From NCBI GenBank assembly GCA_964564625.1, contig CAZMBE010000006.1, positions 42,998 through 106,997 of the forward strand: DNA of 64,000 bases, read 5' to 3'. Source of the DNA: an uncultured Syntrophaceae bacterium (GTDB lineage Bacteria; Desulfobacterota; Syntrophia; Syntrophales; UBA2185). The notes under the pieces are model-generated. The model was not told the DNA's origin. It searched no databases and worked only from the letters and a program-made list of their open reading frames with translations. Numbering within the stretch: the first letter of the stretch is position 1; every line of letters begins with the position of its first letter. The position numbers and the translations under genes were made by a program. Positions 5,244-53,282 of this stretch are shown here, piece by piece.

Positions 5244-5413
5244 TCAGTGTCCGTCTGAAAGGAAAGCTTTGCCTCTGGTCTGGCGCGGGATCGAAGCGTG
5301 CCTTGTATCTCTACGTCCTTCCTTAAGAAGGGTCAGGTGCGATACGGGAAGGAGCGCAAGGGAGAAACCCCTTAAATAAACTTTTTACAACAGTATTCGC
5401 AAAGGAGGAGAAA

Positions 5414-5698
5414 ATGGGCACATTCTTTTTGTTTGGTAAATATTCATCAGCAGCGCTGAAGGGAATGAGCGCGAACCGGACTGAGAAGGTACTGAAACTC
5501 ATCAAAAAGTTCGGAGGTGAAGTAAAATCGATTTATGCATTACTCGGAGAAGTAGACCTTGTTTTTATCCTTACCTTTCCGGATGTGGAAAAAGCGATGC
5601 AGGCATCCGTTGCCCTGACAAAACTCACGGGGATTTCCTTTACCACGCTGCCAGCCGTAACAGTGGAAGAATTTGACAAAATGATGGCAAAGGTTTGA
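5414..5698 (+). CDS. GYD domain protein
   Basis: 94 aa. The N-terminus FFLFGKYSSAALKGMSANRTEKV and the ALLGEVDLVFILTFPD core match my recollection of the GYD family. RBS is AAAGGAGGAG. Confidence 0.7.
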   Translation: MGTFFLFGKYSSAALKGMSANRTEKVLKLIKKFGGEVKSIYALLGEVDLVFILTFPDVEKAMQASVALTKLTGISFTTLPAVTVEEFDKMMAKV

Positions 5699-11107: not shown

Positions 11108-13765
11108 TTAGTTGGCCCGGGTCTGGCGATAGTACCAGTGCAATTGTCCGCGGCTGCTGTCTTCGTCAATATTCTCCTCGGCGATCATCTTTTCTCCCCG
11201 CGCAGAGGGCAATACTTCCTTGAGTTTCCATGTGTTCTCGTGGCGGCCGAATGTCCAGTATTCTTCGAAGGGTGTCACGTAGCGCTGTTCGTTCAAAATC
11301 CGCGGGCCTTTGCGCATAGCCTTTTGGGCATGTGCGCTGATACGCACAATGAATTCATCTTTTGCCGGATTGGCAAAATTTCTCACCAGGATCAGCTCTA
11401 CTTTGCGAACGCAAAAGTTTCGATACTCCACGGTAATCCCGTCCATTTTCCATTGCCCGATCTGCGTGCGCAGGTTCTGTGCCACATCCTTAAAGAGGTC
11501 GCTTTCCGGCACCTGCGCCGGTTCTCCCGACTCCTGCACGAGAAAGACATTTAAAAATACCTGTCGCGCCCTCTCCAGCATTTTCGTGCGGTCCCAGATT
11601 TTGTCCGTTTGGACAAGGAAGCTCAAAAGACGGTCTATCCGTGTGGATTTTTCTCCGACACCCTTCTCAAGCCAGGGCCCCGCCGCACCCGTTATTGTCG
11701 CCGTTTCTCCGTAAATATTTTGGATAGTCTGGTCGGTAAACATCTCTGCAAAGTTCTCATCCTTCAGAATATCAGATTCTCCGGCCTGTTCGATCTCTCG
11801 GAGCAGCCAGGTATTTCCTGAACGGTGGAATGTCCAGAATTCCTGAAACCGCGCAGGGCTTTGGTCGCCTCTTAAAAATTTATTTGTATGGTCATCCACA
11901 TAGTAATCCCGCGCAGAGGCGGTTATGAGTGCGGTAAATTCACGCTGGTCGGGCTTTTCCGTGTAGCGGACATTCACCAGATCCACCCGCTCGACGTGAA
12001 GGTTCTCGATCCGGTTGATCTCATGGTTACGAACCAGTCCCTGGAGCTGCGATGTGTGCTGGAGGAAGAGATCGTCTGTGAGGAGTGGCTTCATCGGTCC
12101 ATAATCACGTTTCTCCCAGCATTCCTGCAGTGTACGAAATGTGGATTCGGTAAGTCTTAGCAATTCTTTTGGCGATAATAAAGGATCCTGCGTGCTTAAG
12201 AAATCCAGCAGCTTTTCCGTGCGGGAGCTTTTGGAGCCTACTTCCTCTGGGCTGTAAAGGAAATCCAAATTTTCGCTTTTCGAGGACCTGCGCCGTGTTG
12301 ACATAGAAGACCAGATCACAAGACCTATGCAGACAGTCCAGAAGATAATTACCCCGATTATTTCCACGGCGTCGCCGGGTGATTCGCTCTGGCCTGATCG
12401 TGAACCTGATCTTGAACTCGATCCGGAGCTGGAACGGCTGGAACTCCCTCCCTTATTGTGTACCAGAAAATCCGCTGCGAGAAACGTATGCGGCTGATCC
12501 ACACTGACGTTGTAAACTAACTCATCCCGTTCGCTTATTGACGTTTCGAGAACCGAAGCCTTCTTCAGCGTGTCGTCACTCCACGCAAGCACGGAGTGTC
12601 CGGGACGGAGCTTCCCCGCTTCGAGGAATGTGCCGTCAGGCAGACCAAGGGGGTGGTCCCGGGTCGTGCGGAGGACGCCGCGATCCGTCTTCACCACAAA
12701 GGTACGGGAATGTGTTGCGAAGATCTTTTTCACCCTTGCGTTCATCATGCGTTGCGCTGTATCAATTGCCTGCACGGTAGCGCCCGCGGAAAGCGTTTCG
12801 ATAGGAACTTGACCCGATGAAGTTCGGATCATGGTTCCGGCGGGGAAGCAACCACCGCCACCGCCTTTATTATGGACGGCGATGCCGCCAGCGAAAAAGG
12901 TGTTCGGATGATCGGTCTGAAGATTGTATACCCGAACGCGTTCGTGAACCCTCTCGAGCGAGAGGATTCTCTGTTCAGAAAGTGCCTTGCCATCCCAGGC
13001 GAAAATGGCATCACCGGTATTGAGAGCGTCTATTGTTTTAAACGTACCCTGTCCGACATAGAAGGGATGCTCAACAGTTACTTTGAGGATTCTGCGGTCT
13101 GTCTTGAGGATTACGTATTCATCAACCTTGTGACGAATGATGTGTCTCACCTTTGTGTGCACAATACGACCATCGGTCGAGTATGCGAGTAAATCATCTC
13201 CCGGACGGACATCACTGATGAGCGTTTCCGTGCCGTCGGATTTCAATATCCCGCTGTCTGGGAGAAAACAACCCTTGTTGTGAACTACCATATTGGCAGG
13301 AAAGAACGTCCCTCCCGGGATAACCAGTAAATTATGCGCAGGCTGCTGTGCCTGAACATGTTGAATTGAGTGGATAGGAACTTCTTGGAGGCGGCCGCCT
13401 CGCATGATGGTAACCATATCACCGACGTTAAGCAGCCTGGCGACGCGGTATTCACCGGGACCCACCATCACCGGGTGCTCTGAGGTGATTTTCACCGATT
13501 CTTCTCCGGCGGAAATCTTCAGATAATGATCGGTACTGACTTCGGTCAGCATCTGAACTTCTCCTGCCAGGATTTTTTCACGCGAAAAGCTCCAGACCTT
13601 GTCGCCCACGCGAAGCTTTTCAATTGCAACAATGCCTGTGGGAGTCATGACAGGAGTGCCTTTTGCCAGACAACCTCCGCCGCCGCGCGCAAAAACTGGG
13701 GTTGAAAAAAGAAAAACAAACAGTATTGCTCCTAATGCAACACTTTTTTTCATTGATCCTTCCAT
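11108..13765 (-). CDS. Membrane protein: signal peptide, 3 tandem Hint (Hedgehog/intein-like) domains, TM helix, 2 Tim44-like domains
   Basis: 885-aa ORF. The likely start is the internal ATG at 13753 (MKKSVALGAILFVFLFSTPVFA), which has GGAAGGA upstream. Three modules each start with G-C-(L/F)-x-x-G-T, contain T-x-(E/D)-H-P and end in V-H-N-K-G. A Ser/Arg-rich linker and a TM helix (AVEIIGVIIFWTVCIGLVIWS) follow. The C-terminal half holds two repeats resembling the Tim44 C-terminal domain (WTFHRSGNTWLLREI and WTFGRHENTWKLKEV). Confidence 0.8.
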   Translation of the reverse strand: MEGSMKKSVALGAILFVFLFSTPVFARGGGGCLAKGTPVMTPTGIVAIEKLRVGDKVWSFSREKILAGEVQMLTEVSTDHYLKISAGEESVKITSEHPVMVGPGEYRVARLLNVGDMVTIMRGGRLQEVPIHSIQHVQAQQPAHNLLVIPGGTFFPANMVVHNKGCFLPDSGILKSDGTETLISDVRPGDDLLAYSTDGRIVHTKVRHIIRHKVDEYVILKTDRRILKVTVEHPFYVGQGTFKTIDALNTGDAIFAWDGKALSEQRILSLERVHERVRVYNLQTDHPNTFFAGGIAVHNKGGGGGCFPAGTMIRTSSGQVPIETLSAGATVQAIDTAQRMMNARVKKIFATHSRTFVVKTDRGVLRTTRDHPLGLPDGTFLEAGKLRPGHSVLAWSDDTLKKASVLETSISERDELVYNVSVDQPHTFLAADFLVHNKGGSSSRSSSGSSSRSGSRSGQSESPGDAVEIIGVIIFWTVCIGLVIWSSMSTRRRSSKSENLDFLYSPEEVGSKSSRTEKLLDFLSTQDPLLSPKELLRLTESTFRTLQECWEKRDYGPMKPLLTDDLFLQHTSQLQGLVRNHEINRIENLHVERVDLVNVRYTEKPDQREFTALITASARDYYVDDHTNKFLRGDQSPARFQEFWTFHRSGNTWLLREIEQAGESDILKDENFAEMFTDQTIQNIYGETATITGAAGPWLEKGVGEKSTRIDRLLSFLVQTDKIWDRTKMLERARQVFLNVFLVQESGEPAQVPESDLFKDVAQNLRTQIGQWKMDGITVEYRNFCVRKVELILVRNFANPAKDEFIVRISAHAQKAMRKGPRILNEQRYVTPFEEYWTFGRHENTWKLKEVLPSARGEKMIAEENIDEDSSRGQLHWYYRQTRAN

Positions 13766-18638: not shown

Positions 18639-20042
18639 TCATTGGCCGATACTTAATGCCGGGTCAAACTTACCCGATACGGTTGGTGACTGTGCATTGC
18701 CTGTCTCCCTCCTGACCTGTTCGGACAGATAGGGGATCAGCTCTCCCAGGGTGACATGGCTATCCTTGTTATAGTCTGCATCGCCATTGAGACCCTTGAG
18801 GAGGAAATATGTGAAGACGCCGTGACCTCCACCCCACTGCTGACCTTCCTGGGAAAACTGTCGCTCATCTGACGCGCTGATGACGGCGATGCCATCACCG
18901 ATCTTGGAGAGATTCTGGATGCCAGAACTTATGGGATTGATAGTGATGCCTCTCGTGGCGCGTCTGGCGACGTCGAAAGACTGTCCAATGCCTCCAGAAT
19001 GGCACGCGTCTGCGATCACCACAACTTTCCGTGCCTTAATAAAACGTTTCAGGGCTGTTTCAATATCCCACATCGGGAATCCCGTTGTGGCCACATCATC
19101 ATATTGGGCATCATAGGGCAGGAGAAAAAGATTTTGAGGGTAATCGGGGGACTGGGGGCTGCCGTGTCCGGCAAAATATATCATGACCGTATCTTCTTCG
19201 AGGGCTTGTCCTAACCAGTTAAAGAGGGCATTCCTGATATTTTGTGCCGTTGCCTTCGAATCAAGGAAAATCTTAACTCTGGATGGCGCATATCTCCCTC
19301 CTTTTTGTGAAACCAGCCACTTGTTGAATGCCCGTGCATCAGCGGCGGAGTATCGCAAGCCGGCAATCCGCGAGTCTTGGTACTTGGAGATTCCGATGAT
19401 GACGGCCCATTTTTGCCCTTGCACGGGGAGATATCCTGCATCTCTCTTGCCTGCTTTTCCCTGGGTGGGTTCGGCTGACGAGACCTTTACCTGCGTTTCC
19501 ATGTGGTCTATGCCCGTGTCCACAAGGGCAACCTCAACATCAACAAAGCCGTCATTGTCCGCGGTGGCTCCATAAAGTTCATTTATCCTGAAATAGAGAG
19601 TTCCCTCTTCCTTTGGTACGAGTCGATACTCGTAGCCGATGCCGAACGGCTCACCGTTCTCACCGATCTTACCGATCAAGGCGCCGGCACTCCATTTTTT
19701 CACGATGACAAACATTTCCGGGCAGATTGTACTGTGCGTCTCGACTCCGGACGGGCTTGTCCATCCGCATAAAATGCCGGCATGCCACCGACCTCGGGCA
19801 GAAATCTGATATGATGAGTTTTTTTGAACAATCACGCCGGAATTTTTCCATTCATTAGCCTTTGCATACACACGTGAGGACTTCTTCTGGATTTTCTGGT
19901 CCAGCGTGAACTGATCGACCTTTTCTGTGTACTTGAGCCCAGTGCATCCTGCCAGGATCATCAAGAACACATGAACTATAATTAGCGATTTCAAATTTGC
20001 CTGAAAATTCATGAAAGATTCCTCGAACGGCATCTCCAGCAA
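18639..20042 (-). CDS. Lipoprotein with LecA/PA-IL-like lectin domain fused to a caspase-family (peptidase C14) domain
   Basis: 467 aa. Lipobox ILAGC. The lectin-like region (ARGRWHAGILCGWTSPSG...GALIGKIGENGEPFGIG...LYFRINELYGATADNDGFVDVEV) resembles P. aeruginosa LecA. The caspase dyad is YFAGHGSP and VVVIADACHSGG. The real start may be the MNFQ Met at 20012. Confidence 0.8.
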   Translation of the reverse strand: MLEMPFEESFMNFQANLKSLIIVHVFLMILAGCTGLKYTEKVDQFTLDQKIQKKSSRVYAKANEWKNSGVIVQKNSSYQISARGRWHAGILCGWTSPSGVETHSTICPEMFVIVKKWSAGALIGKIGENGEPFGIGYEYRLVPKEEGTLYFRINELYGATADNDGFVDVEVALVDTGIDHMETQVKVSSAEPTQGKAGKRDAGYLPVQGQKWAVIIGISKYQDSRIAGLRYSAADARAFNKWLVSQKGGRYAPSRVKIFLDSKATAQNIRNALFNWLGQALEEDTVMIYFAGHGSPQSPDYPQNLFLLPYDAQYDDVATTGFPMWDIETALKRFIKARKVVVIADACHSGGIGQSFDVARRATRGITINPISSGIQNLSKIGDGIAVISASDERQFSQEGQQWGGGHGVFTYFLLKGLNGDADYNKDSHVTLGELIPYLSEQVRRETGNAQSPTVSGKFDPALSIGQ

Positions 20043-21168: not shown

Positions 21169-23391
21169 ATGAATCGATTTGATTACAACACGTGCGGTGA
21201 TATACTGTATTACCTGACATGGTGCCTCCGCTCAGTAATGATCATTGCCGTTGTCATGATGGGGTCTATTGAGTATGCAGAAGGAGCTCTGCAGTCTGCT
21301 CTTTCTTCCGGCGATCTTCAAAAAGTGTCGTCGTGGATTGCAAATGAAACCTCCCATCACCACCAGCCATACTGCTGGAAGCGAAGTTACGGCCGCGGTG
21401 TGGGAAAGCCGATGAAGTGCAAGGCAGGGGAAGCGTATGATGCCGGTTTGTGCTACACCCCGTGCCAGCCGGGTTACAAAGGTGTGGGCCCCGTGTGCTG
21501 GCAGAGTTGCGCGTCAGGGTTCAGGGACGATGGCGCTTTCTGTGCCAAACCGAAACCGTACGGCCGCGGCGTTGGCTACCCCTGGAAATTTGGCGATAAG
21601 GCGTTCAGTTTAAATGGTGCGCGCGCGCGGTGTGCGAAAGCCCACCCGCAGGGCTGTGAAAAAAACGGGGAGATCATTTATCCCAAGTGCAAAGAGGGAT
21701 TCCATCCGGTAGGGTGCTGCATTTGCTCGCCCGACTGTCCCCCGGGCCAGAGCGATATCGGCGTTTCCTGTGCAAAAAAAAGTTACGGGCGTGGCGTAGG
21801 CAGACCTGTGTCAACATGCCCGGCCGGGAAGGATAAAGATGCACTGCTGTGCTACACTCAATGCAAGAGCGGATATCACGGCGTAGGTCCGGTCTGCTGG
21901 CAGCATTGCCCTTCCGGGCGAGTCGATTGCGGCGCCGGGTGCTCGACCAGTAAAAAATCCTGCGTGAAGGATACCGCCAAAATGGTCTATTCGCCGATAG
22001 CAGCCGCGGGGCAAACCGCTGCCTTGATCGTGTCTGGCGGTACGAGCTCGGCCGCGACCGGAGCCGCCGGAGCTGCCAAAGCTGCCTCCAAGTATGCAAA
22101 GCTCAAGAAATTGTGGGAGAAGACCAAAGGTGCCAGGGAACTTGTCAAAGACGCCAAGAGAGCCGGTACGGTTGGCTATGAAACGTATAACACGACCAGT
22201 TTGTGGCTTAATGAATTTGTCGGCGATTTTGAACACATGACCACAAAAAGTGTTGTCAGTGAATTGGAAAGGCGTTTTAAGGGCGACGCGCTGCTCTGGG
22301 TCAAGCGGCAGTATGCGATGAACCACCTGACATTGATGTTAAAGGCTGACGGCATCGACACTGCCGAAAGTGTGTTGACAGCGGTTTCTGCATTTGATCC
22401 GACAGGAATAACAGGAGTCATCGACGCGTATGCAAATCCTAAATGCGCAACCGCTGAGCCCTTCCCGGTGGTTACATTGCTGCCCCCATATGGGCCGCCA
22501 CTGCCCGCCCCTCCTCTGGCAGGGGGTCTCTATACCCTTGCGGCCCGTCATAGCAACAAGTGTCTTGACGTAGCCGAAGCAAGCGGCAAGAGCGGTGCCG
22601 ATGCCCAGCAATGGGATTGCAACAACGGAAACAACCAGAAATGGAACCTTGTTTCCAAGGGGGGAGACATCTATACACTCGCGGCGTTGCATAGCGGCAA
22701 GTGTCTTGACGTAGCCGGCTCGCGTACTGACAACGGTGCCAATATCCTCCAGTGGGATTGCACCAGCAAAGATAACCAGAGCTGGCGGATCACCAAAGGA
22801 GCAGACGGTTCTTACCGCCTCACTGCACGTCATAGTAACAAGTGCCTCGACGTGTCCGGCGCAAGCGGCAACAACGGCGCCGATGTCATTCAATGGGATT
22901 GCCACAGCGGAAACAACCAGAAATGGAATATTAGTCCATCAGCACCAGCCGCCCCGCCTCTTGCGGATGGGTTTTACACCCTCACGGTCCGTCATAGCGG
23001 CAAGTGTCTCGACGTGTCCGGCGCGAGTCGAAACAATGGAGCCAATGTTCTCCAATGGGATTGCCACAGTGGAAGCAACCAGAAGTGGCGCCTTGTTTGC
23101 AGAGGGGGAGATTCCTGCACGCTCTCGGCGTTACATAGCGGCAAGTGTCTCGACGTATCCGGCTCAAGCGTCAACAACGGCGCCAATGTCCTCCAGTGGG
23201 ATTGCCATGGCAAAGATAACCAGACCTGGCGGATCACCAGAGAAGGAGACGGTTATTTCCGTATCACCGCCCGTCATAGCGGCAAGTGTCTCGACGTGTC
23301 CGGCGCGAGCGTCAACAGCGGCGCCAATGCTCTCCAATGGGATTGCCACAACGGAAACAACCAGAAATGGAAGCTTAACAGGACCAATTAG
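21169..23391 (+). CDS. Secreted or anchored protein: Cys-rich repeat region, Ala/Gly-rich central region, two ricin-B-type beta-trefoil lectin domains
   Basis: 740 aa. RBS is AAAGGAG. YGRGVG...C..C..GY.GVGPVCWQ.C motifs are repeated in aa ~60-265. Six (QxW)-type subrepeats (ARHSxKCLDVxGxSxxNGAxxxQWDCxxGxNQKW) form two trefoils. Confidence 0.8.
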   Translation: MNRFDYNTCGDILYYLTWCLRSVMIIAVVMMGSIEYAEGALQSALSSGDLQKVSSWIANETSHHHQPYCWKRSYGRGVGKPMKCKAGEAYDAGLCYTPCQPGYKGVGPVCWQSCASGFRDDGAFCAKPKPYGRGVGYPWKFGDKAFSLNGARARCAKAHPQGCEKNGEIIYPKCKEGFHPVGCCICSPDCPPGQSDIGVSCAKKSYGRGVGRPVSTCPAGKDKDALLCYTQCKSGYHGVGPVCWQHCPSGRVDCGAGCSTSKKSCVKDTAKMVYSPIAAAGQTAALIVSGGTSSAATGAAGAAKAASKYAKLKKLWEKTKGARELVKDAKRAGTVGYETYNTTSLWLNEFVGDFEHMTTKSVVSELERRFKGDALLWVKRQYAMNHLTLMLKADGIDTAESVLTAVSAFDPTGITGVIDAYANPKCATAEPFPVVTLLPPYGPPLPAPPLAGGLYTLAARHSNKCLDVAEASGKSGADAQQWDCNNGNNQKWNLVSKGGDIYTLAALHSGKCLDVAGSRTDNGANILQWDCTSKDNQSWRITKGADGSYRLTARHSNKCLDVSGASGNNGADVIQWDCHSGNNQKWNISPSAPAAPPLADGFYTLTVRHSGKCLDVSGASRNNGANVLQWDCHSGSNQKWRLVCRGGDSCTLSALHSGKCLDVSGSSVNNGANVLQWDCHGKDNQTWRITREGDGYFRITARHSGKCLDVSGASVNSGANALQWDCHNGNNQKWKLNRTN
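22520..23388 (+). repeat. Six tandem ~135-140-nt coding repeats (ricin beta-trefoil subdomains) with high nucleotide identity
   Basis: Strings such as CGTCATAGCGGCAAGTGTCTCGACGT and CAATGGGATTGCCACA recur at regular spacing. The repeats create long spurious antisense ORFs in the track. Confidence 0.85.
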
Positions 23392-43644: not shown

Positions 43645-43797
43645 GAGGTCCTCCTGTGCAAGCGAATGTAGAGAGCAAAGCAGACGGGAAGGAAAGGGCA
43701 GTATCTATATTACTCCAAAGGGATAAGAGAGTAATACAGAAAGACCTCATTGATGAAAAGAAATGAAAATAAATTCTTTAGAAGAAAGGAGTTCAAC

Positions 43798-44988
43798 ATG
43801 AAATTACATATTAAAAACAACGTATCATGGGTCGGCAAGATCGATTGGGAACTCAGAAAATTTCACGGGGATGAATATTCAACACACCGTGGATCAACCT
43901 ATAATTCATACCTGATCGAGGAAGAAAAGGTTGTTGTGATTGACACAGTATGGGCTCCCTTTGCCAAGGAGTATGTTGCAAAGCTTGAAAAGATTATCGA
44001 CTTGAAGAAAATCGACTATGTCATCGCAAACCACGCGGAAATAGATCATAGCGGCTCCTTGCCGGAGCTCATGAGCCGCATTCCCGATACACCGATATAT
44101 TGTACCGCAAATGGTGTAAAATCCCTGAAAGGGCACTACCACCAGGACTGGAATTTTCAACAGGTTAAAACAGGGGATCGTTTGAGTCTTGGGAAAAAAG
44201 AATTGATATTTATAGAGGCGCCAATGCTTCACTGGCCCGACACCATGTTTTGTTATCTGACTGGCGATAATATTTTGTTCAGTAACGATGCCTTCGGCCA
44301 GCACTACGCGACGGAATTCATGTTCAATGATCTCGTCGACCAGGCGGAATTGATGGCGGAATGCGTAAAGTACTACGCGAATATCCTGACGCCGTTCAGT
44401 CAGTTGGTCGACAAAAAAATCAAGGAGGTTTTATCATTCAAACTGCCCGTTGATGTTATCTGTACAAGCCATGGAGTCATCTGGCGGGATAATCCGGTTC
44501 AAATTGTTGAGCAGTATGTGAAATGGGCGAACAGCTATAAGGAAAACCAGATTACCATCGCATACGACAGCATGTGGAACGGGACCCGTGTCATGGCGGA
44601 GAATATTGCTCACGGGATTAAACAATCCGATGAGAAAGTAAATGTGAAACTGTACAATATCGCAAAAGCGGATAAGAACGATGTGATCACGGAGATATTT
44701 AAATCCAAAGCCATTCTTGTCGGTTCGCCGACCATCAACAGGGGCATTCTGACGGGTGTCGCCAGCGTTCTCGAAGAAATAAAGGGATTGAGATTCCAAG
44801 ACAAAAAAGCGGCTGCCTTCGGCTGTTACGGATGGAGCGGAGAATCCGTAAAGATCATTTCACAGGACCTCGCAGCCGCGGGTTTCCAGGTCGTTAATGA
44901 GGGGATCAGGGCTATGTGGAACCCGGATGCCAAGAGCATTGAAGAGTGTATTGAATATGGCAGGAAGGCAGCCGAACTTTTTAACTAA
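43798..44988 (+). CDS. fprA: A-type flavoprotein (FprA / flavodiiron protein: metallo-beta-lactamase plus flavodoxin domains)
   Basis: Start at MKLHIKNNVSWVG (ATG at 43798, AAGGAG RBS). Di-iron ligand motif NHAEIDHSG. C-terminal flavodoxin module (ILVGSPTINRG, FGCYGWSGE). Confidence 0.9.
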   Translation: MKLHIKNNVSWVGKIDWELRKFHGDEYSTHRGSTYNSYLIEEEKVVVIDTVWAPFAKEYVAKLEKIIDLKKIDYVIANHAEIDHSGSLPELMSRIPDTPIYCTANGVKSLKGHYHQDWNFQQVKTGDRLSLGKKELIFIEAPMLHWPDTMFCYLTGDNILFSNDAFGQHYATEFMFNDLVDQAELMAECVKYYANILTPFSQLVDKKIKEVLSFKLPVDVICTSHGVIWRDNPVQIVEQYVKWANSYKENQITIAYDSMWNGTRVMAENIAHGIKQSDEKVNVKLYNIAKADKNDVITEIFKSKAILVGSPTINRGILTGVASVLEEIKGLRFQDKKAAAFGCYGWSGESVKIISQDLAAAGFQVVNEGIRAMWNPDAKSIEECIEYGRKAAELFN

Positions 44989-45188: not shown

Positions 45189-45605
45189 ATGGCAAGACCG
45201 AGGAATTGCAGGAGAGTGGCGTGTCTCCCCGAAAGCCGGTATTTCAAGCCAAGAGGAATCCCTCTTTCCGCTCTTGAGGAGATAAATTTAACGATTGATG
45301 AATTCGAAGCTATTCGTTTAGCCGATCTCGAGGGCCTGTACCAGGAGCAGGCTGCGGAAAGAATGAACATCTCCCGGCAGACATTCGGAAGGATTATCGG
45401 TTCCGCGCATAGAAAGTTGGCGGAGGTATTGGTTGCAGGAAAAGCGCTAAAGATAGAAGGAGGTGATTTTGAGGTAGACGAGGTGAGAAAATTTACATGC
45501 TACGACTGTCAACATTCATGGGAACTTCCTCATGGGACAGGCAGGCCTGGGAACTGCCCTTCCTGTCAGAGTGTAACGATACATAGAGCGGAAGAAAACA
45601 GATGA
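45189..45605 (+). CDS. DUF134 (UPF0251) family predicted DNA-binding protein with C-terminal zinc ribbon
   Basis: 138 aa. MARPRNCRRV...YFKPRGIP...LTIDEFEAIRLADLEGLYQEQAAERMNISRQTFGRI is the DUF134 signature. The C-terminus has CYDC...CPSC. Confidence 0.8.
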   Translation: MARPRNCRRVACLPESRYFKPRGIPLSALEEINLTIDEFEAIRLADLEGLYQEQAAERMNISRQTFGRIIGSAHRKLAEVLVAGKALKIEGGDFEVDEVRKFTCYDCQHSWELPHGTGRPGNCPSCQSVTIHRAEENR

Positions 45606-45713: not shown

Positions 45714-46085
45714 GTGAAGGTATGTTTTCCAGTTTATAAAGATGAAGGCGTCAACAGTACTGTATATGATCATTTTGGTTCCTCGCCAGAATTTATCATT
45801 GTTAATACGGAACTCCAGACTGTGATCACTATTGATAACAACGATCTTGACCATGTCCATGGGGCGTGCAATCCCGTAATGGCCGTGGGAGGAAATAAGA
45901 TTGACGCGGTTGTTGTCGGTGGGATCGGCGCGGGGGCTCTGATGAAACTCAATGCGGACGGGATTAAAGTATATAAAGCAGTCAAAGAGACAGTAAAAGA
46001 AAACCTGGATCTTCTGAAAGACAACAGACTTCCCGAACTGGCTTTGCGTCAGACATGCGGAGGTCATCAGGGATGCTGCCATTAA
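45714..46085 (+). CDS. NifB/NifX-type (dinitrogenase Fe-Mo cofactor-binding fold) domain protein
   Basis: 123 aa with a GTG start. HFGSSPEFIIV...VVGGIGAGALMKLNADGIKVY pattern. Confidence 0.75.
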   Translation: MKVCFPVYKDEGVNSTVYDHFGSSPEFIIVNTELQTVITIDNNDLDHVHGACNPVMAVGGNKIDAVVVGGIGAGALMKLNADGIKVYKAVKETVKENLDLLKDNRLPELALRQTCGGHQGCCH

Positions 46086-46099
46086 AGGAGAATAAAAAA

Positions 46100-46978
46100 A
46101 TGGATTGTGAACAACACAATAAAGGGAAAAACCATGGTTGTCAGGGGCAGCACAAGGATCCTGATAGAAAATTGAAGGACTTTACCGAGGATTTCACTCT
46201 GGTAAATCGTCTGGCCAAGATCGATCACAAGATTATGGTCCTCTCCGGGAAGGGCGGAGTCGGCAAGAGTACCGTGGCGGTGAATATTGCCGTCGCACTG
46301 GCCCTTGCGGGGAAACAGGTGGGAATTCTGGATGTCGACTTTCATGGCCCTAGCATACCTACCCTGCTGAAGCTCAACGGGAACCCAGTGAAAGCGGGCG
46401 ATGACGGTATTGAACCCGTGGATTTTGTGGAAGGCATTAAAGTAATGTCCATAGGATTTTTCATGCCGGAGCAGGACAGGGCAGTGATCTGGAGAGGCCC
46501 CATGAAGATCAGCGTCATAAAACAGCTTTTGGCGGAGGTAAGCTGGGGTCATCTGGATTACCTTGTGATTGACTTTCCCCCAGGTACCGGGGATGAACCC
46601 CTTTCCGTGGCTCAACTGATTCCTGACGCCGATGGCGCCGTTATTGTAACCACCCCCCAGGATCTATCCCTTGTCGACGTGCGAAAATCGATTGACTTCT
46701 GCAAACAGCTGAAACTTCCTGTTTTGGGAGTGATAGAAAACATGAGCGGCCTCGTCTGCCCTCATTGCAGTCAGGTGATTGATGTTTTCAAACGAGGAGG
46801 CGGAGAAAAAATGGCCGGCGAGATGGGTGTACCATTTTTGGGCCGTATTCCTATAGAACCATTGATTGTGGAGGCCTCTGACAATGGGAAGCCTTTCCTC
46901 TATCATTATGGGAAAACGCCGGCCGCCGAGGCTTTTGCCGGAGCCATTAAACCGATCCTGGGAATGGTTGCCAAATAG
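46100..46978 (+). CDS. Mrp/NBP35 (ApbC) family Fe-S cluster carrier ATPase
   Basis: Start at MDCEQHNK (ATG at 46100, AAAGGAG RBS). Deviant Walker A SGKGGVGKST, DFPPGTGD and the CPHC motif. Confidence 0.88.
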   Translation: MDCEQHNKGKNHGCQGQHKDPDRKLKDFTEDFTLVNRLAKIDHKIMVLSGKGGVGKSTVAVNIAVALALAGKQVGILDVDFHGPSIPTLLKLNGNPVKAGDDGIEPVDFVEGIKVMSIGFFMPEQDRAVIWRGPMKISVIKQLLAEVSWGHLDYLVIDFPPGTGDEPLSVAQLIPDADGAVIVTTPQDLSLVDVRKSIDFCKQLKLPVLGVIENMSGLVCPHCSQVIDVFKRGGGEKMAGEMGVPFLGRIPIEPLIVEASDNGKPFLYHYGKTPAAEAFAGAIKPILGMVAK

Positions 46979-47263
46979 AGAGACCTTTTCCGATACATTA
47001 CCGCATCGCTGATGCTACTCAAATGACATAACAATAGTTGTGCAAACAGGCAAGATATTGTTGGTTTGGGCAGTGATGTAGGGATTATCGTCAAGATCGA
47101 TACATGAATGGACAAACGCTGACAAAAGAAGAAGGATAGCAGTCCTCAGAGGGTCCGATGCCGTCCTTAAGACGGCGCATTAGCCTGGCTTTATCCGCGG
47201 GGAGCATAGGGAAGGTTTCAATACAATCAATAATTATCTCCATCAAATCGAAGGAGGTGAACA

Positions 47264-47839
47264 ATGTCACAGGTAAAAGGCCTTCTGCGGCAAGTTGATG
47301 AGGCGGAATCAGAAACCTTAAAACGTATCTCCACAGCATGGAGAAACAACGCTTTCGACGACATGAACCTCCTGCGCACCTTTGCCCTGCGGCAGGGCGT
47401 GCTGGACATCTTTCTTGGTTTCATGCGCTACATCTACTCCAAGTCCACTGTGGAGCCGGAACTTATCGAAATGGCCCGCATCAAGTCGGCCTGGCTCGCC
47501 GGGTGCCGCCACTGAGGAACAGTTCGGTCTGCTTCGGTGAAGCAGATGGGATTGAGCGAAGACAAGGTTGAGAAGATCCGCGATTACAAGAATTCCGACC
47601 TGTCCGAACGTGAGAAAGCTGCTCTCCGGCTGACTGAAATTATCGCTTCGGAGCCCCACACTCTTGATGATGCATTCTTCGCTGAATTGAAGAAACACTT
47701 CAGCGATGAGCAGCTCCTTGACCTGGGAGTAGCCGTGGGGCTGCTGAACGGGCTGCATCGATTTCTAGAGACCTTCGGCGTTCTTCCTGACAGCTACGAT
47801 GAAGGCGCTTCATGTGAAGTGCCACAGCGAGGAAAATGA
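47264..47839 (+). CDS. AhpD-like / carboxymuconolactone decarboxylase family protein, probable selenoprotein (in-frame TGA at 47513-47515 read as Sec)
   Basis: Track ORFs 47264-47515 and 47537-47839 share one frame, separated by a single TGA. Read through, the sequence is E-x11-C-R-H-U, the AhpD E-x11-CxxC motif with Sec in place of the second Cys. A hairpin lies 15 nt downstream. RBS is GAAGGAGG. Confidence 0.7.
47527..47547 (+). promoter_or_regulatory. Candidate bacterial SECIS hairpin
   Basis: CTGCTTC-ggt-GAAGCAG (47529-47545) can be extended by T-A and G-T pairs. GGU is in the apical loop. It begins about 15 nt after the UGA. Confidence 0.55.
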
Positions 47840-47989
47840 TCTTCTCCCAATGAGGCAAAAGGAGCAGTCTTTATTGATTTTCTGGGCCATATTCTCATAA
47901 GGCTCGCAGCCGACAGGAATACATTACCTTGAATTATGAGAGGTATATGATATAGAGAACATGATGATTCTGCATAGAGGTCTGCCATC

Positions 47990-49375
47990 TTGTCGGATAA
48001 AAGAAATACTGTCTGGTCTTTTTTCTCCTCCGTAAAACTGACCGTATCGCTCTTAATAGTCATCGCCTTTACCTCCATTCTCGGTACGGTAATTCCCCAG
48101 CAAGAAACAGTTGATACGTTCGTAGAACGTCTCAGCCCCGCCATGGTGTCTGTTTTGCGAACTTTGCAGTTTTTCGATATCTATCATTCCGCGTGGTTTA
48201 TGATGCTCCTCTTCCTCCTCGCCATCAATTTGATGGTCTGCTCCGCGAACCGATGGCCTTTTTCCTGGAAGCGTTTCCGGGGAATATCCGCCCCTGATAA
48301 AGAGGAAGTGTTAAAGGACCTGCCTCCGGAGCTGCTCATTCATAGTGAAGGGGTACTCTCCGAGGAAGCCTCCCGCATTGAAGGTGTCTTGAAGAAGCTC
48401 TATGGAAGGGTGCGGCGTAAGGATACAGATAGCGGGGTATTTTTCACAGGAGAGAAGGGAAATGCATCATACCTTGGTGTGTATTTAATCCATCTCAGTA
48501 TCCTGGTTATCCTTGCCGGCATGATCATCGGATTTCTCTTCGGGTATGATGCATATATGGAGCTACCCGAGGGTGAATCGACAGATACAGTCATGGTCAA
48601 AAGAGGAGGAAAGTTTAAGAAACTCAACTTCACTTTACAATGTGATCGTTTTTCTGTGGAGTATTATGAAGACGGCACGCCAAAGATGTACAGATCGGAA
48701 CTCTCTTTTATAAAAAACGGCAGCATACTCCAAGAGAGTGCTGTTCTTGTCAATCATCCTGCAACTTTCGAAGGGATACGCTTTTATCAGGCAAGTTACG
48801 GTACTGTCTCTTCCGGTATTGCCCTCATTCTTGTCGGTAAAGGACATAATCAGAGAATAATAAAAGTTGCGGAGGGGACTGAGTTTGACCTTCCGGGTAA
48901 GGATGGGAAAGCGAAAATACTTCGCATGGAGGAAAATTTCATGCGTATGGGGCCGGCAGTCAAGATTCAAATTACATCATCAACACAAAATGTTCAATTC
49001 TGGGTTTTTCAAAACATTGAAGAGATTGAAGTGGCCGATCCTGGCCTGAGGCAGCGTGTACCGATATTTAATCCTGGCTTTATCCCCCCATACGTTTTTT
49101 CCCTTGTGGCGTTTCAACCAAAGCACTACATAGGTCTGCAGGTAAATTATGATCCCGGTGTTCCCATAGTTATCTGCGGATCTTGTTTTCTCGTTGCCGG
49201 TTTCCTCGTCGTCTTTTTTTATGCCCATCGCCAGGTATGGGTTGGAATCACTAATGAAGGAGCAAACACCCGTATTAGTGTCTCCGGAAAGACCAACAAG
49301 GATTCCGCCGGCCTTGCCCGCGAGATATCCCGACTGATTAAAGAGATAGAAAAAACCGGAGCACGCAGTGCATGA
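47990..49375 (+). CDS. resB: Cytochrome c biogenesis protein ResB/Ccs1 (system II)
   Basis: 461 aa with a TTG start. The N-terminus WSFFSSVKLTVSLLIVIAFTSILGTVIPQ is typical of ResB, with a large periplasmic domain. Its stop overlaps the ccsA start. Confidence 0.85.
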   Translation: MSDKRNTVWSFFSSVKLTVSLLIVIAFTSILGTVIPQQETVDTFVERLSPAMVSVLRTLQFFDIYHSAWFMMLLFLLAINLMVCSANRWPFSWKRFRGISAPDKEEVLKDLPPELLIHSEGVLSEEASRIEGVLKKLYGRVRRKDTDSGVFFTGEKGNASYLGVYLIHLSILVILAGMIIGFLFGYDAYMELPEGESTDTVMVKRGGKFKKLNFTLQCDRFSVEYYEDGTPKMYRSELSFIKNGSILQESAVLVNHPATFEGIRFYQASYGTVSSGIALILVGKGHNQRIIKVAEGTEFDLPGKDGKAKILRMEENFMRMGPAVKIQITSSTQNVQFWVFQNIEEIEVADPGLRQRVPIFNPGFIPPYVFSLVAFQPKHYIGLQVNYDPGVPIVICGSCFLVAGFLVVFFYAHRQVWVGITNEGANTRISVSGKTNKDSAGLAREISRLIKEIEKTGARSA

Positions 49376-50220
49376 TCAACACAACCATTCTTAGCTGGGT
49401 AACTTACGTATACTTTGCCGCCTTTGTGTTGTACTTCATGCGGATGATCAGAGGCACGGATATATGGGGGCGCATGGCCTCTATTGCCGCCGTTTTCGGC
49501 CTTGTTGCCCATTCTGCCGGGCTGATCATGCGGTGGATCGAATCATATGCCATGGGAATCGGCCACGCCCCTCTTTCTAATTTTTATGAATCGTTGATTT
49601 TTTTTGCGTGGACAATCGTGCTTCTTTCCCTGATTTTTGAATGGCGCATCAAACATAAAGGTCTTGGCGTATTTGTGCTCCCCCTTGCATTTCTTGCCAT
49701 GGCATTCGCGTCTCTCTCTCCAAATATCAATAGCAGAATCCAGCCGCTCATCCCGGCACTCCAGAGCAACTGGCTGACAAGCCATGTCATGACCTGCTTC
49801 ATGGGATACGGGGCCTTTGCCATCGCCTTCGGGTTGGCGTGCATGCACTTTGCGAAGAATTTCACTCTCAACGCAACGGATTCTCAGAGTTCGTTACTGA
49901 GGTTCCTGCCATCACATGAGGGTATCGACGAGCTCATCTACCATAGTGTTGCCCTGGGATTTGTTTTTCTCTCCCTGGGCATCATTACCGGTTCTGTCTG
50001 GGCCCACTACGCGTGGGGATCATACTGGAGCTGGGATCCAAAAGAGACCTGGTCATTGATTACGTGGCTGATTTATGCCGCCATGCTGCATTCACGCTTT
50101 GTGCGGGGCTGGCGGGGAACAAGGATGGCTCTTATGGCCATTATTGGTTTTGCGGCGGTGCTGTTCACCTATCTGGGAGTAAACTATCTCCCCGGTCTCC
50201 ACAGCTACTTGCAATCTTAA
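49372..50220 (+). CDS. ccsA: Cytochrome c biogenesis protein CcsA/ResC (heme handling, WWD motif)
   Basis: 282 aa. WGSYWSWDPKETWSLITW tryptophan-rich motif. Polytopic membrane protein. Confidence 0.9.
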   Translation: MINTTILSWVTYVYFAAFVLYFMRMIRGTDIWGRMASIAAVFGLVAHSAGLIMRWIESYAMGIGHAPLSNFYESLIFFAWTIVLLSLIFEWRIKHKGLGVFVLPLAFLAMAFASLSPNINSRIQPLIPALQSNWLTSHVMTCFMGYGAFAIAFGLACMHFAKNFTLNATDSQSSLLRFLPSHEGIDELIYHSVALGFVFLSLGIITGSVWAHYAWGSYWSWDPKETWSLITWLIYAAMLHSRFVRGWRGTRMALMAIIGFAAVLFTYLGVNYLPGLHSYLQS

Positions 50221-50394: not shown

Positions 50395-50919
50395 ATGGAA
50401 CAAGAAGAAAGAAAAGGCTGGAACCCATATATTGCCGGTGCCCTGACCGGGCTTTTGCTCGTATTTTCTGTCTGGTTTACCGGTAAGTATGTAGGGGCTT
50501 CAACGACATTTGTCCGATCAGCAGGCTACATCGAGAGGTTCTTTAGTGCGGACAGGGTAGCCAAGATGGCGTACTTCCAAAAGGAAGTCCCGAAGATCGA
50601 CTGGCAGTTTCTCTTTGTCATAGGCATCTTCATCGGCGCCCTCATTTCCTCGACAACATCCCAATCCTTCCGTTGGCAAGCCGTACCTACCCGCTGGGAA
50701 GGTCGTTTTGGACCGTCTGTTCCAAAACGCGCCCTCGCCGCCTTTATCGGTGGCGCCGTGGCCATGTTCGGAGCCCGTCTCGCCGATGGTTGACCGAGCG
50801 GACATGGGCTGAGCGGTTCGCTTCAGTTAGCTGTCAGCGGGTATATTTCTCTGATCTGTTTCTTTGTCGGCGGGATTATTGTCGCTCGCCTTCTTTACCG
50901 GGGAGGGATCAAGCCATGA
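50395..50919 (+). CDS. YeeE/YedE-family sulfur-compound transporter, first half-protein, probable selenoprotein (in-frame TGA at 50791-50793 read as Sec)
   Basis: Reading through the TGA gives FGARLADG-U-PSGHGLSG...LLYRGGIKP, ending at TGA 50917-50919, which overlaps the next ATG. The family motif is G-C-(T/P)-S-G-H-G, so Sec replaces the conserved Cys. A hairpin lies 17 nt downstream. RBS is AAAGGAGG. Confidence 0.65.
50808..50827 (+). promoter_or_regulatory. Candidate bacterial SECIS hairpin
   Basis: GCTGAGCG-gtt-CGCT(T)CAGT forms an 8-bp stem with one bulged U and GGUU at the apex. Confidence 0.45.
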
Positions 50920-51443
50920 ACGAACTTATCTATGGATTCATTACCGGGATCATTTTCGGTTTTCTCCTTCAGAAAGGGCGGGTAATCCGTTATGATAAGC
51001 AGATTGGCGCCCTGCTCCTGAAGGACATGACGATTGTCAAATTCATGCTGTCCACGATTCTTGTAGCCATGGTGGGGGTCTATTTGCTCGTCGATCTGGG
51101 TCTGGCGAAACTCTCCCTGAAGGCCACGATCTTCGGGGGAAATATAGTCGGCGGTTTGATTTTCGGCTTCGGGTGGGGGATTCTCGGCTATTGCCCCGGC
51201 ACCCAGATGGGCGGTCTCGGTGAGGGAAGATGGGACACTCTCTGGGGAATCATCGGCATGCTTGTCGGAGCAGCGCTCTTTGCCGAGATGTATCCCACTT
51301 TGAAGGCTACTGTCCTGATGTGGGGAGATTTCGGCAGGATTACGATCCCACAGATCCTCGGCATTAATCACTGGCCGGTCATCGGGGTCATGGTTGTGCT
51401 TGGAGTAATTTTAATGCGGTGGTTCGAGAAAAAAGGTTTGTGA
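50916..51443 (+). CDS. YeeE/YedE-family transporter, second half-protein
   Basis: Start at MNELIYGFITGIIFGFLLQKG (ATG at 50916, ATGA overlap). GWGILGYCPGT motif. The track's 50673 start is an out-of-context extension across the upstream gene. Confidence 0.8.
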   Translation: MNELIYGFITGIIFGFLLQKGRVIRYDKQIGALLLKDMTIVKFMLSTILVAMVGVYLLVDLGLAKLSLKATIFGGNIVGGLIFGFGWGILGYCPGTQMGGLGEGRWDTLWGIIGMLVGAALFAEMYPTLKATVLMWGDFGRITIPQILGINHWPVIGVMVVLGVILMRWFEKKGL

Positions 51444-52007: not shown

Positions 52008-53282
52008 ATGAGCATTTCAATAATTACCCTTGCCGTAGTTTTTCTTCTTATAGCCATACGACAAATCGGAAGCGCCAGACTCAAGATATGGCAGATAATG
52101 CTTGGCGGCGCAGTCATTGTAATCCTTACAGGAGAGATTACTCCACGTGCAGCGTTTCATGCGATTAATGTTGATGTGATTTTCTTTCTTTTTGGAATGT
52201 TTATAATCGGTCAGGCTATAGAAGACTCAGGGTACTTAACCCATATCTGCCATAAGTTCTTTGGAAAGGTGAAGTCAGTAGACAAATTAGTTCTTGCAAT
52301 CCTTTTCACAATGGGGATTGGCTCTGCAGTCCTTATGAACGATACGATTGCAATAATCGGCACATCTATCGTGATTCTTCTTGCAAAAAGAAACAATATC
52401 TCTGCAAAGCTTCTTTTGCTTTGCCTTGCTTTTGCAGTCACCATTGGAAGCGTAATGAGCCCTATCGGAAACCCGCAGAATCTTCTTGTTGCAACGGGCG
52501 GTAATATAGGAAATCCTTTTATCACTTTCTTAACATATCTGTTTATTCCAACAGTAATAAATCTTCTGTTCACATATGTTCTCCTTAAGTTATTTTATAA
52601 AGAAGAATTCAACATAACGAATCTCCGAACCAACAGTGAACATATAAAACACGTAAGGCTCTCAAAAGTTGCAAGAATATCCTTACTCCTTGTTATTTGC
52701 TTAATTGTGGCTAAAGTTGCCCTTGTATTCGTGAATTTCTTTGTAACTGTTGATTTTGACTTTAAGCTTACCTATATTGCCCTTATTGGCTGTTCGCCGA
52801 TATTAATCTATCGGTTCATGTCAAAGAAGAAAAAGTACAGGTTTCATATCCTGAGAAAAATAGACTGGTGCACGCTCATCTTCTTTGCATCAATGTTTGT
52901 CCTTATGGAAAGTGTATGGCAGACGGGTTTTTTCCAAAATCTGATATCGGTCCTTTCTCTTGACATGACAAGCATTGTGGTCATTATGATAATTTCAGTC
53001 ATTGTAAGTCAGCTTATATCAAATGTGCCGATGGTTGCGCTGTTTTTGCCGCTCATTATCTCTGCAGGCGCAGGAAGTAAAGAATTAATGGCGCTCGCGG
53101 CCGGCTCTACCATTGCAGGAAATCTTTTCATTCTTGGCGCAGCCAGCAACATAATAATAATCCAGCACGCAGAGAAAGAAAATCAGGGTGAAAGTATCAC
53201 CTTTCTTGAATTCGCAAGAGTCGGAATACCCTTAACAATAATTAACATGTCAGTGTATTTGTTCTTTTTTTGGATACTATAA
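52008..53282 (+). CDS. ArsB/NhaD-superfamily anion/ion permease
   Basis: 424 aa polytopic protein. Repeated GSxxSPIGNPQNL / GNLFILGAASNIII hairpin motifs are typical of the ArsB/NhaD/CitMHS fold. Codon usage is visibly more AT-rich than the neighbours. Confidence 0.7.
   Translation: MSISIITLAVVFLLIAIRQIGSARLKIWQIMLGGAVIVILTGEITPRAAFHAINVDVIFFLFGMFIIGQAIEDSGYLTHICHKFFGKVKSVDKLVLAILFTMGIGSAVLMNDTIAIIGTSIVILLAKRNNISAKLLLLCLAFAVTIGSVMSPIGNPQNLLVATGGNIGNPFITFLTYLFIPTVINLLFTYVLLKLFYKEEFNITNLRTNSEHIKHVRLSKVARISLLLVICLIVAKVALVFVNFFVTVDFDFKLTYIALIGCSPILIYRFMSKKKKYRFHILRKIDWCTLIFFASMFVLMESVWQTGFFQNLISVLSLDMTSIVVIMIISVIVSQLISNVPMVALFLPLIISAGAGSKELMALAAGSTIAGNLFILGAASNIIIIQHAEKENQGESITFLEFARVGIPLTIINMSVYLFFFWIL

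Follow-up and report, generated by a model that had tools for sequence, protein, structure and literature searches.

A 64,000-nucleotide stretch of DNA from an uncultured Syntrophaceae bacterium (contig CAZMBE010000006.1; hereafter, the window) very probably contains, at positions 47264-47839 of the forward strand, a single gene for a selenocysteine (Sec)-containing protein of the AhpD-like/CMD superfamily, in which an in-frame UGA codon stands at the second cysteine of the redox motif. When positions 47100-48000 were read and translated, 47264-47839 proved to be a single reading frame whose sole interruption is TGA 47513-15; the list of open reading frames (ORFs) holds it as two halves in the same frame, 47264-47515 and 47537-47839. 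The read-through product of 191 amino acids (aa) contains ...IEMARIKSAWLAGCRH-U-GTVRSASVKQMGL..., and the local protein context is E69-MARIKSAWLAG-C81-R-H83-U84-GTV-R88-SASVKQ. An initial annotation of this DNA had described two ORFs in one frame, parted only by TGA 47513-47515, and had proposed one 191-aa selenoprotein rather than two genes or a pseudogene. Translation bears out both the layout and the read-through protein as it was written there, and the proposal itself is supported by the conserved UGA, the substitution ratios, the cysteine alignment and the covarying hairpin described below.

The UGA codon is retained across orthologues of widely differing identity. A scan of genome collections returned four orthologues from Syntrophales/Syntrophaceae metagenome-assembled genomes (MAGs; L001-L004, 82-94% identity), in all four of which the tblastn match continues straight over the stop and TGA occupies the same codon. 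A metagenome scan using N-terminal patterns blind to the Sec site yielded 55 further loci with 37-91% identity, every one with TGA at the Sec codon (55/55), and TGA is likewise present in L047-L050 and L106/L107. Overall, TGA is kept at this codon in 67/67 independent orthologous loci from Syntrophales MAGs and soil or sediment metagenomes, spanning 37-94% identity, a recurrence far in excess of chance. Over the loci of both scans, the Sec-codon column reads TGA in 67, TGC in 28, TGT in 6 and GAA in 1. The ratio of nonsynonymous to synonymous substitution rates (dN/dS), calculated by the Nei-Gojobori method, is 0.08-0.14 upstream of the UGA and 0.07-0.14 downstream of it (0.08-0.10 and 0.07-0.08, respectively, at dS of ≈0.75-1.6), indicating that the second half is translated in this frame under strong constraint.

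We distinguish a Syntrophales-type subclade (a), with the sequence CRH-U-GT[VI]RSAS[VA]KQ, from two soil lineages, subclade (b) at 46% identity (CRH-U-STVRSASVMRT) and subclade (c) at ≈40% identity (CVH-U-SLARSSSAVRR). A further cysteine, Cys184 (window 47813-47815), lies in an E-G-x-x-C motif and is one that L012 and the Syntrophales clade conserve and subclades (b) and (c) lack; it could serve as an extra resolving or interaction thiol.

More distant homologues (≤35% identity; from Terriglobales, Solirubrobacterales and others) have cysteine at the aligned position and thus a CxxC motif, and the aligned codon is TGC or TGT in 34 of them. TGA also occurs independently at this codon in two further lineages, L025/L030 and L041-44. 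In an alignment of 15 diverse family members, no column is invariant apart from C81 and column 84 (C/U). When 1.84 billion representatives were searched exhaustively by HMMER with the exact C-terminal half as the query, the best matches included many proteins of 90-125 aa in which the match begins at residue 1-15; these are C-terminal halves made by gene callers. The best full-length matches carry Cys rather than Sec. The full-length orthologue P0019 (CHHC) is 47% identical to Sec subclade (c), without gaps, and 36% identical to the window protein, and a second full-length Cys orthologue, P0084, reads CGYC-STVRS. The notion of a strictly Sec-only clade was softened after these two turned up in the exhaustive search. 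The initial annotation had expected Cys homologues to align their Cys with the UGA, and this is what the 34 TGC/TGT homologues, P0019 and the invariant C/U column show. It had also named homologues ending at this position as evidence to the contrary; every half-length database protein is, however, a gene-caller truncation at the TGA.

Public protein collections in fact hold the family almost solely as artefacts, in the form of halves ending or starting at the UGA (among P0001-P0007 and P0008-P0156), and P0007 is a false 191-aa ORF that enters ...GCRH from another frame context. The gene described here and another 3 kb away are wrongly handled in every public gene call that we retrieved, and such wrong calls (splits, a false 191-aa ORF and use of the wrong code) lead to an under-count of the selenoproteome of Syntrophales and soil bacteria. 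Gene callers routinely halve selenoproteins of this well-known kind, so our finding amounts to a sound correction of the annotation and not to a surprise. It challenges no current concept.

The hairpin downstream of the UGA codon

The RNA just 3' of the UGA is predicted to fold into a hairpin (47520-47554) that would act during translation as a bacterial Sec insertion sequence (bSECIS) element, binding SelB.GTP.Sec-tRNASec so that UGA 47513-15 would be read as selenocysteine and not as a stop. Its upper stem pairs GUCUGCUUC with GAAGCAGAU (47527-47535 with 47539-47547) around a GGU loop at 47536-38, and the minimum free energy (MFE) is −24.3 kcal/mol over 71 nt (z = −2.6 relative to shuffles). 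The initial annotation had pointed to a hairpin just 3' of the UGA with GGU at its apex; the hairpin is real, but the first base of its CTGCTTC arm lies 13 nt past the UGA, not ≈15 nt. The published bSECIS model specifies an apical loop of 3-9 nt with a G in the first two loop positions, a stem of 4-16 bp, a UGA-to-loop distance of 16-37 nt and an MFE of at most −7.5 kcal/mol (PMC13188914). With a 3-nt GGU loop, a 9-bp upper stem, a loop 20 nt after the UGA and a core of −10.9 kcal/mol, the window element satisfies all four published constraints, so that the comparison with this model called for in the initial annotation comes out 4/4 in favor.

Sequence variation among relatives points to selection on the RNA structure. 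In subclade (a), the hairpin codons TCT GCT TCG GTG AAG CAG are frozen even synonymously; flanking codons vary freely. Across 21 non-redundant sequences from subclades (a) and (b), 85.7% of the cells of the 15-bp structure are paired, compared with 29-50% in slid registers. With the in-register hairpins of L106 and L025/L030 included, the set used for the core comprises 22 sequences from four lineages; in these, the 7-bp core is 98.1% paired and shows compensatory double changes at 4/7 pairs (C-G to U-A, U-A to C-G, U-A to A-U and C-G to G-C). Slid registers of the core are 26-66% paired with 0-1 compensatory pairs, and 0/500 shuffles match the observed values. Several of the core changes couple a synonymous substitution in the 5' arm with a nonsynonymous one in the 3' arm (in subclade b, for instance, Lys to Met and Gln to Arg), so that the RNA structure shapes the peptide. 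The lower stem is only loosely conserved, and our functional claim is therefore limited to the upper stem of 7-9 bp.

Elsewhere in the family, the hairpin takes other forms. A different hairpin is conserved in subclade (c), where the loop reads (C/G)GUG(C/A) and lies 26-30 nt from the U of the UGA; in L041-44 the loop is GGUCG, at 20-24 nt. The 7-bp SECIS with a GGU triloop is found in a fixed register and is common to Acidobacterial relatives; if the clade is a subfamily of its own, as tentatively proposed below, this would suggest that the Sec form spread along with its SECIS across phyla. Relative to the bSECISearch consensus, the window loop starts with GG as expected, and binding of SelB to it is predicted. 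Unlike the Escherichia coli fdhF paradigm, however, the element has no bulged U, and its loop is a very small triloop, GGU here and GGC or GUC in some relatives. The gene offers a clean minimal bSECIS supported by covariation, in which a GGU triloop caps a 7-bp stem at a distance of 20 nt from the UGA. An Rfam scan of the whole window at gathering thresholds found a tRNA-Leu and nothing related to SECIS, and a permissive scan of 47450-47620 gave a chance-level match to Hammerhead_II (E = 7.8) and likewise nothing related to SECIS.

Family membership, proposed chemistry and relation to known selenoproteins

The core signature of AhpD/CMD proteins is E-x11-C-x-x-C-x3-H. The initial annotation had reported an exact fit to it; E69-x11-C81-R-H-U84 does match the E-x11-C-x-x-C part, with Sec for the second Cys, but the terminal x3-H does not hold, as residue 88 is an arginine. 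At the level of the family, the Pfam CMD model is matched by 15/15 aligned members at E ≤ 0.01 (best, 1.3e-16). A profile built from the Sec clade only matches PA0269/2ijc (1.3e-15) and Atu0492 (4e-14) and places CRH[U] over CAYC; a wider family profile matches the Bmp8 debrominase at 1e-28 and AhpD 6k40 at 6e-21. Because these profiles match solved AhpD/CMD structures, membership in the AhpD-like/CMD superfamily, as judged by sequence, is secure; membership in a curated equivalog family is not. In some relatives the C-terminal CMD-like module is repeated in tandem, with two stretches in P0009-P0011, three in P0016 (899 aa) and seven in P0018 (2443 aa).

In AhpD of Mycobacterium tuberculosis, the proton relay comprises Glu118, Cys130, His132, Cys133 and His137 (PMC3141380), and the second cysteine is the exposed residue that attacks AhpC (PMC6626918). 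The window protein shares E-x11-C-x-H-[C/U] with this enzyme (as E69, C81, H83 and U84), and its Sec occupies the position of Cys133, which attacks Cys61 of AhpC. It differs in having Arg88 in place of His137, in carrying the motif in mid-chain within one CMD-type unit of 191 aa, in the lack of an adjacent ahpC gene and in a similarity that is seen by profile only. By homology with AhpD, the product, which has no signal peptide, would be a cytoplasmic thiol/selenol oxidoreductase in which a helix begins with the active-site motif Cys81-Arg-His83-Sec84. Sec84 would attack an oxidized partner (for example, a disulfide, a hydroperoxide or the sulfenate of a peroxiredoxin), Cys81 would resolve the intermediate as an intramolecular selenenylsulfide, and a cellular reductant would then re-reduce this bond. 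At neutral pH a selenolate has already lost its proton, and the Sec of this protein could therefore make the histidine general base dispensable. By analogy with AhpD, a peroxiredoxin-reducing function is on balance somewhat favored, and a strictly anaerobic syntroph would thereby gain a selenoenzyme for redox defence.

Among proteins of solved structure, the best match of the Sec-clade profile is PA0269, a hexameric AhpD-like protein of Pseudomonas aeruginosa (PDB 2o4d/2ijc). CRH[U]GTVR of the window protein aligns on CAYCVNMH of PA0269, and conservation is good toward the C terminus. PA0269 differs in using Cys for Sec, in having Tyr for the His within CxxC, in keeping the His at +4 and in having no counterpart to roughly 45 residues at the N terminus of the window protein. 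Bmp8 (PDB 6ohi), a thiol-dependent reductive dehalogenase of the CMD family, also aligns at CxxC and is the top match of the broad profile; however, its match to the profile of the Sec clade only is much lower (2e-8), and the window has no bmp-type gene context.

AhpD-like selenoproteins with a CxxU motif have been described under the names AhpD-like, CMD-like and "distant AhpD homolog" (PMC1088965, 2005; PMC2398784, 2008; PMC13188914, a 2026 review). The 2005 description by Zhang, Fomenko and Gladyshev comprised 27 Sargasso Sea sequences with predicted SECIS elements (PMC1088965). Few marine selenoprotein families are more abundant than these proteins, of which AhpD-like 1 numbers 299 sequences and AhpD-like 2 numbers 70; they have entries in a dedicated database and are covered by current reviews. 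A Deltaproteobacterial case is known from Geobacter as the "distant AhpD homolog", and the statement in the initial annotation that AhpD-like selenoproteins occur in anaerobic Deltaproteobacteria accords with this literature. The list of 19 selenoproteins for Syntrophus aciditrophicus contains no AhpD-like protein (PMC1794560). The window gene resembles the known class in belonging to the same superfamily (COG2128/PF02627), in placing Sec on the second Cys with a bSECIS directly downstream, in having widespread Cys homologues and in its occurrence in anaerobic Deltaproteobacteria. With the class of CxxU AhpD-like selenoproteins on record since 2005, the gene adds to it a new member that had not been annotated.

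The window clade differs from that class in having a signature of its own, C-x-H-U-x3-R, and in falling below the cutoffs of the curated families; arguably, it forms a new subfamily. Its use of Sec appears nearly obligate, with 67 TGA loci and only a handful of Cys forms, these at ≤47% identity. We propose tentatively, and with considerable doubt, that the clade is an uncatalogued AhpD-like subfamily defined by E-x11-C-x-H-U-x3-R, almost obligate Sec and a rewired relay in which Arg replaces His137 and the in-motif His is kept. Given the distinct signature and the rewired relay, its substrate or chemistry may differ from the reduction of AhpC; if so, a role tied to the DUF134, NifX-like and Mrp metal-cofactor genes that accompany the clade in Syntrophales would be a candidate. 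The natural series of Sec and Cys forms, with Arg in place of the general-base His, lends itself to probing how Sec affects the catalytic needs of AhpD-type enzymes.

Weighing the alternatives

Several observations weigh against the selenoprotein assignment or against the function proposed for it. With Arg88 as the equivalent of His137, the proton relay departs from that of canonical AhpD. Against Pfam CMD (PF02627), the score of the window protein by itself is 20.2 bits, with a gathering score of 23, and the protein reaches no curated NCBIfam cutoff: it scores 44.9 bits against TIGR01926 ("peroxidase-related enzyme"; cutoff 81.8) and 48.7 bits against NF053654 ("YciW-related (seleno)protein"; cutoff 310), and it has no match at E ≤ 0.01 to NF041047 ("distant AhpD homolog") or NF041238 ("AhpD-related (seleno)protein"), the latter being matched only by 8 other members of the alignment, below its cutoff. 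In AhpD of Burkholderia thailandensis, more depends on the first Cys than on the second (PMC6626918), so a nucleophilic role for Sec is not guaranteed. The compensatory changes in the hairpin come mostly from a few deep lineages and thus represent few independent events. Among the 32 annotated ORFs of the 64-kb window, and by ARAGORN, no selA, selB, selD or tRNA-Sec (selC) was found, and no gene for AhpC or another peroxiredoxin partner adjoins the selenoprotein gene; with no peroxiredoxin nearby, the substrate is proposed from homology.

The protein might be a selenoprotein with another job, such as a Bmp8-like reductive dehalogenase or deselenase or a redox helper in metal/metalloid or Fe-S trafficking linked to the neighboring DUF134, NifX-like and Mrp genes. 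The Bmp8 match of the broad profile, the recurrence of the NifX-like and DUF134 genes beside the gene in the Syntrophales clade, the absence of a nearby AhpC and the Arg in place of His137 all speak for such a role. The Bmp8 match stems, however, from distant Cys homologues, as the profile of the Sec clade only favors AhpD-like proteins of the PA0269 type, and the synteny is limited to one order and absent from subclades (b) and (c). We consider another job possible but rather unlikely.

Alternatively, the UGA might specify a standard amino acid, either through a recoded genetic code (Trp in code 4 or Gly in code 25) or through near-cognate read-through independent of a SECIS. Two database proteins seem to fit this idea, as P0078 has W and P0047 has G at the Sec column. 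P0078 reads CSYW, but the underlying DNA (L106/L107, 1007-1519 and 162-674) has TGA at this codon, and P0078 is therefore a selenoprotein that was translated with code 4. P0047 reads CVHG (CVH-G-SLARSAS) from a true GGA codon on a lone 923-bp contig (L108 407-883), which makes it a rare variant or a sequencing error and not a change of code. Moreover, TGA terminates 13/32 Pfam-supported genes of the window, the selenoprotein gene included, which excludes recoding of the genetic code in the window. Read-through independent of a SECIS is unparsimonious given that the UGA falls exactly on the redox Cys and is followed by a canonical bSECIS, and a standard amino acid at this codon is altogether very unlikely. 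The gene behind P0047 is itself of the subclade (c) type, and a strong hairpin is still present downstream of its GGA; the Gly could reflect a recent loss of Sec, an inactive variant or a sequencing error.

The locus could instead consist of two small genes, one for an 83-aa protein ending at TGA 47515 and one for a 100-aa protein starting at GTG 47537, perhaps as a split CMD domain. Both halves are present in the mechanical ORF list, and public gene callers predict just such halves. The restart codons are not conserved, however: GTG 47537 is GCG in L001, L057, L058 and further metagenome loci, and ATG 47546 is AAG or CAG in most orthologues. The seven residues encoded from the TGA to the GTG, GT[VI]RSAS, are kept at the protein level, and homologues of the Cys type are encoded as one polypeptide, with a Cys codon in place of the TGA. 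The closest match to a Shine-Dalgarno sequence, GAGGA at 47514-18, overlaps the UGA and lies 18 nt from GTG 47537, so the second ORF has no usable ribosome-binding site (RBS), as the initial annotation had noted. Two genes are accordingly an extremely unlikely arrangement. The prospect that a nonsense mutation of the active-site Cys codon (TGC/TGT to TGA) has left a pseudogene is negligible, for although TGC to TGA needs one base change, TGA is kept in 67 loci down to 37% identity, downstream dN/dS is as low as upstream and the hairpin is conserved and covarying.

Genomic setting

The features of the selenoprotein gene, which we retain as the reading of 47264-47839, are listed with its neighbors in Table 1.

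Table 1 Features of the probable AhpD-like selenoprotein gene and its neighborhood (window coordinates)
Feature	Position	Strand	Basis or remark
Shine-Dalgarno AGGAGG	47252-47257	+	6 nt 5' of ATG 47264; read from sequence
Selenoprotein CDS (coding sequence), AhpD-like/CMD superfamily	47264-47839	+	Frame, dN/dS, profile matches
Glu69, equivalent of M. tuberculosis AhpD Glu118 in the proton relay (E-x11-C)	47468-47470	+	
Redox motif Cys81-Arg-His83-Sec84 (CxxU)	47504-47515	+	Invariant C81/column 84; aligned on C-A-Y-C of PA0269
Sec-encoding UGA	47513-47515	+	TGA in 67/67 clade members; TGC/TGT in 34 distant homologues; Cys in orthologue P0019
Extended SECIS hairpin (predicted)	47520-47554	+	MFE structure; lower stem 47520-25/47549-54, G.G mismatch, upper stem 47527-35/47539-47
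Arg88 at the AhpD His137 position	47525-47527	+	Invariant Arg in subclades (a)-(c)
Conserved 7-bp SECIS core helix with GGU apical loop (47536-47538)	47529-47545	+	Covariation, bSECIS criteria
Terminator codon TGA of the selenoprotein gene	47837-39	+	Frame
Flavodiiron-type protein	43750-44988		
DUF134	45189-45605		
NifX-like (Nitro_FeMo-Co)	45714-46085		
Mrp/NBP35 ATPase	46055-46978		
ResB	47990-49375		
CcsA	49372-50220		
YeeE pair	50395-51443		
Probable second selenoprotein gene, YeeE/YedE-type half-transporter (TsuA-like)	50395-50919	+	UGA 50791-50793 in ADG-U-PSG
CitMHS transporter	52008-53282		

A scan for other in-frame TGAs uncovered a probable second selenoprotein gene, 50395-50919, 3 kb downstream of the AhpD-like gene and with a good RBS. 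Its read-through product matches Pfam Sulf_transp (PF04143) over residues 5-162, across the UGA, at 1.3e-25 (91 bits; cutoff 27), and a candidate SECIS hairpin lies at 50807-50828 (GUU loop 50816-18, 22 nt after the UGA; −8.9 kcal/mol). YeeE/YedE is listed as a selenoprotein family with the motif GUxSG. The stop codon of the gene overlaps the ATG of its paralogous second half, 50916-51443, as ATGA. In the closest relative, L005, Ns cover exactly the region of the YeeE-type UGA (≈5309-5548), and ≈2.4 kb of extra DNA separates ccsA from the YeeE gene, compared with 175 nt in the window.

This second gene indirectly supports a capacity for Sec decoding in the host, as does the record of S. aciditrophicus, whose 19 reported selenoproteins include SelD (PMC1794560), the closest orthologues of the window gene being from Syntrophales/Syntrophaceae MAGs. 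The window ORFs whose size would suit SelD, SelA or SelB encode a Y-family polymerase, a caspase-domain protein and a PAS histidine kinase. Housekeeping genes make up the remaining 20 large ORFs, and the tRNA-Leu is the only tRNA.

A promoter and terminator scan of 46800-48100 gave nothing above shuffle expectation. NifX-like and/or DUF134 genes adjoin the subclade (a) loci L001, L003, L052, L055, L057 and L067, and not those of subclades (b) and (c). The full trio of DUF134, NifX-like and Mrp/NBP35 genes adjoins the selenoprotein gene in several Syntrophales loci (L001, L003 and L057), and in the window the NifX-like (45714-46085) and Mrp (46055-46978) genes overlap by 31 nt. A functional link to ResB/CcsA was considered and rejected, as the adjacency is found in the closest relative (L003/L005, 94-97% identical) only and not in L001 or L002, and the selenoprotein has no signal peptide.

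Farther away, an 885-aa ORF on the reverse strand (11108-13765) joins Hint/intein-type domains (PT-HINT, Hint and Intein_splicing) with a Tim44-like domain in an unusual architecture. Near it lie a gene for a caspase-domain protein (18639-20042, reverse strand) and one for a 740-aa protein with ricin-type lectin domains (21169-23391, forward strand).

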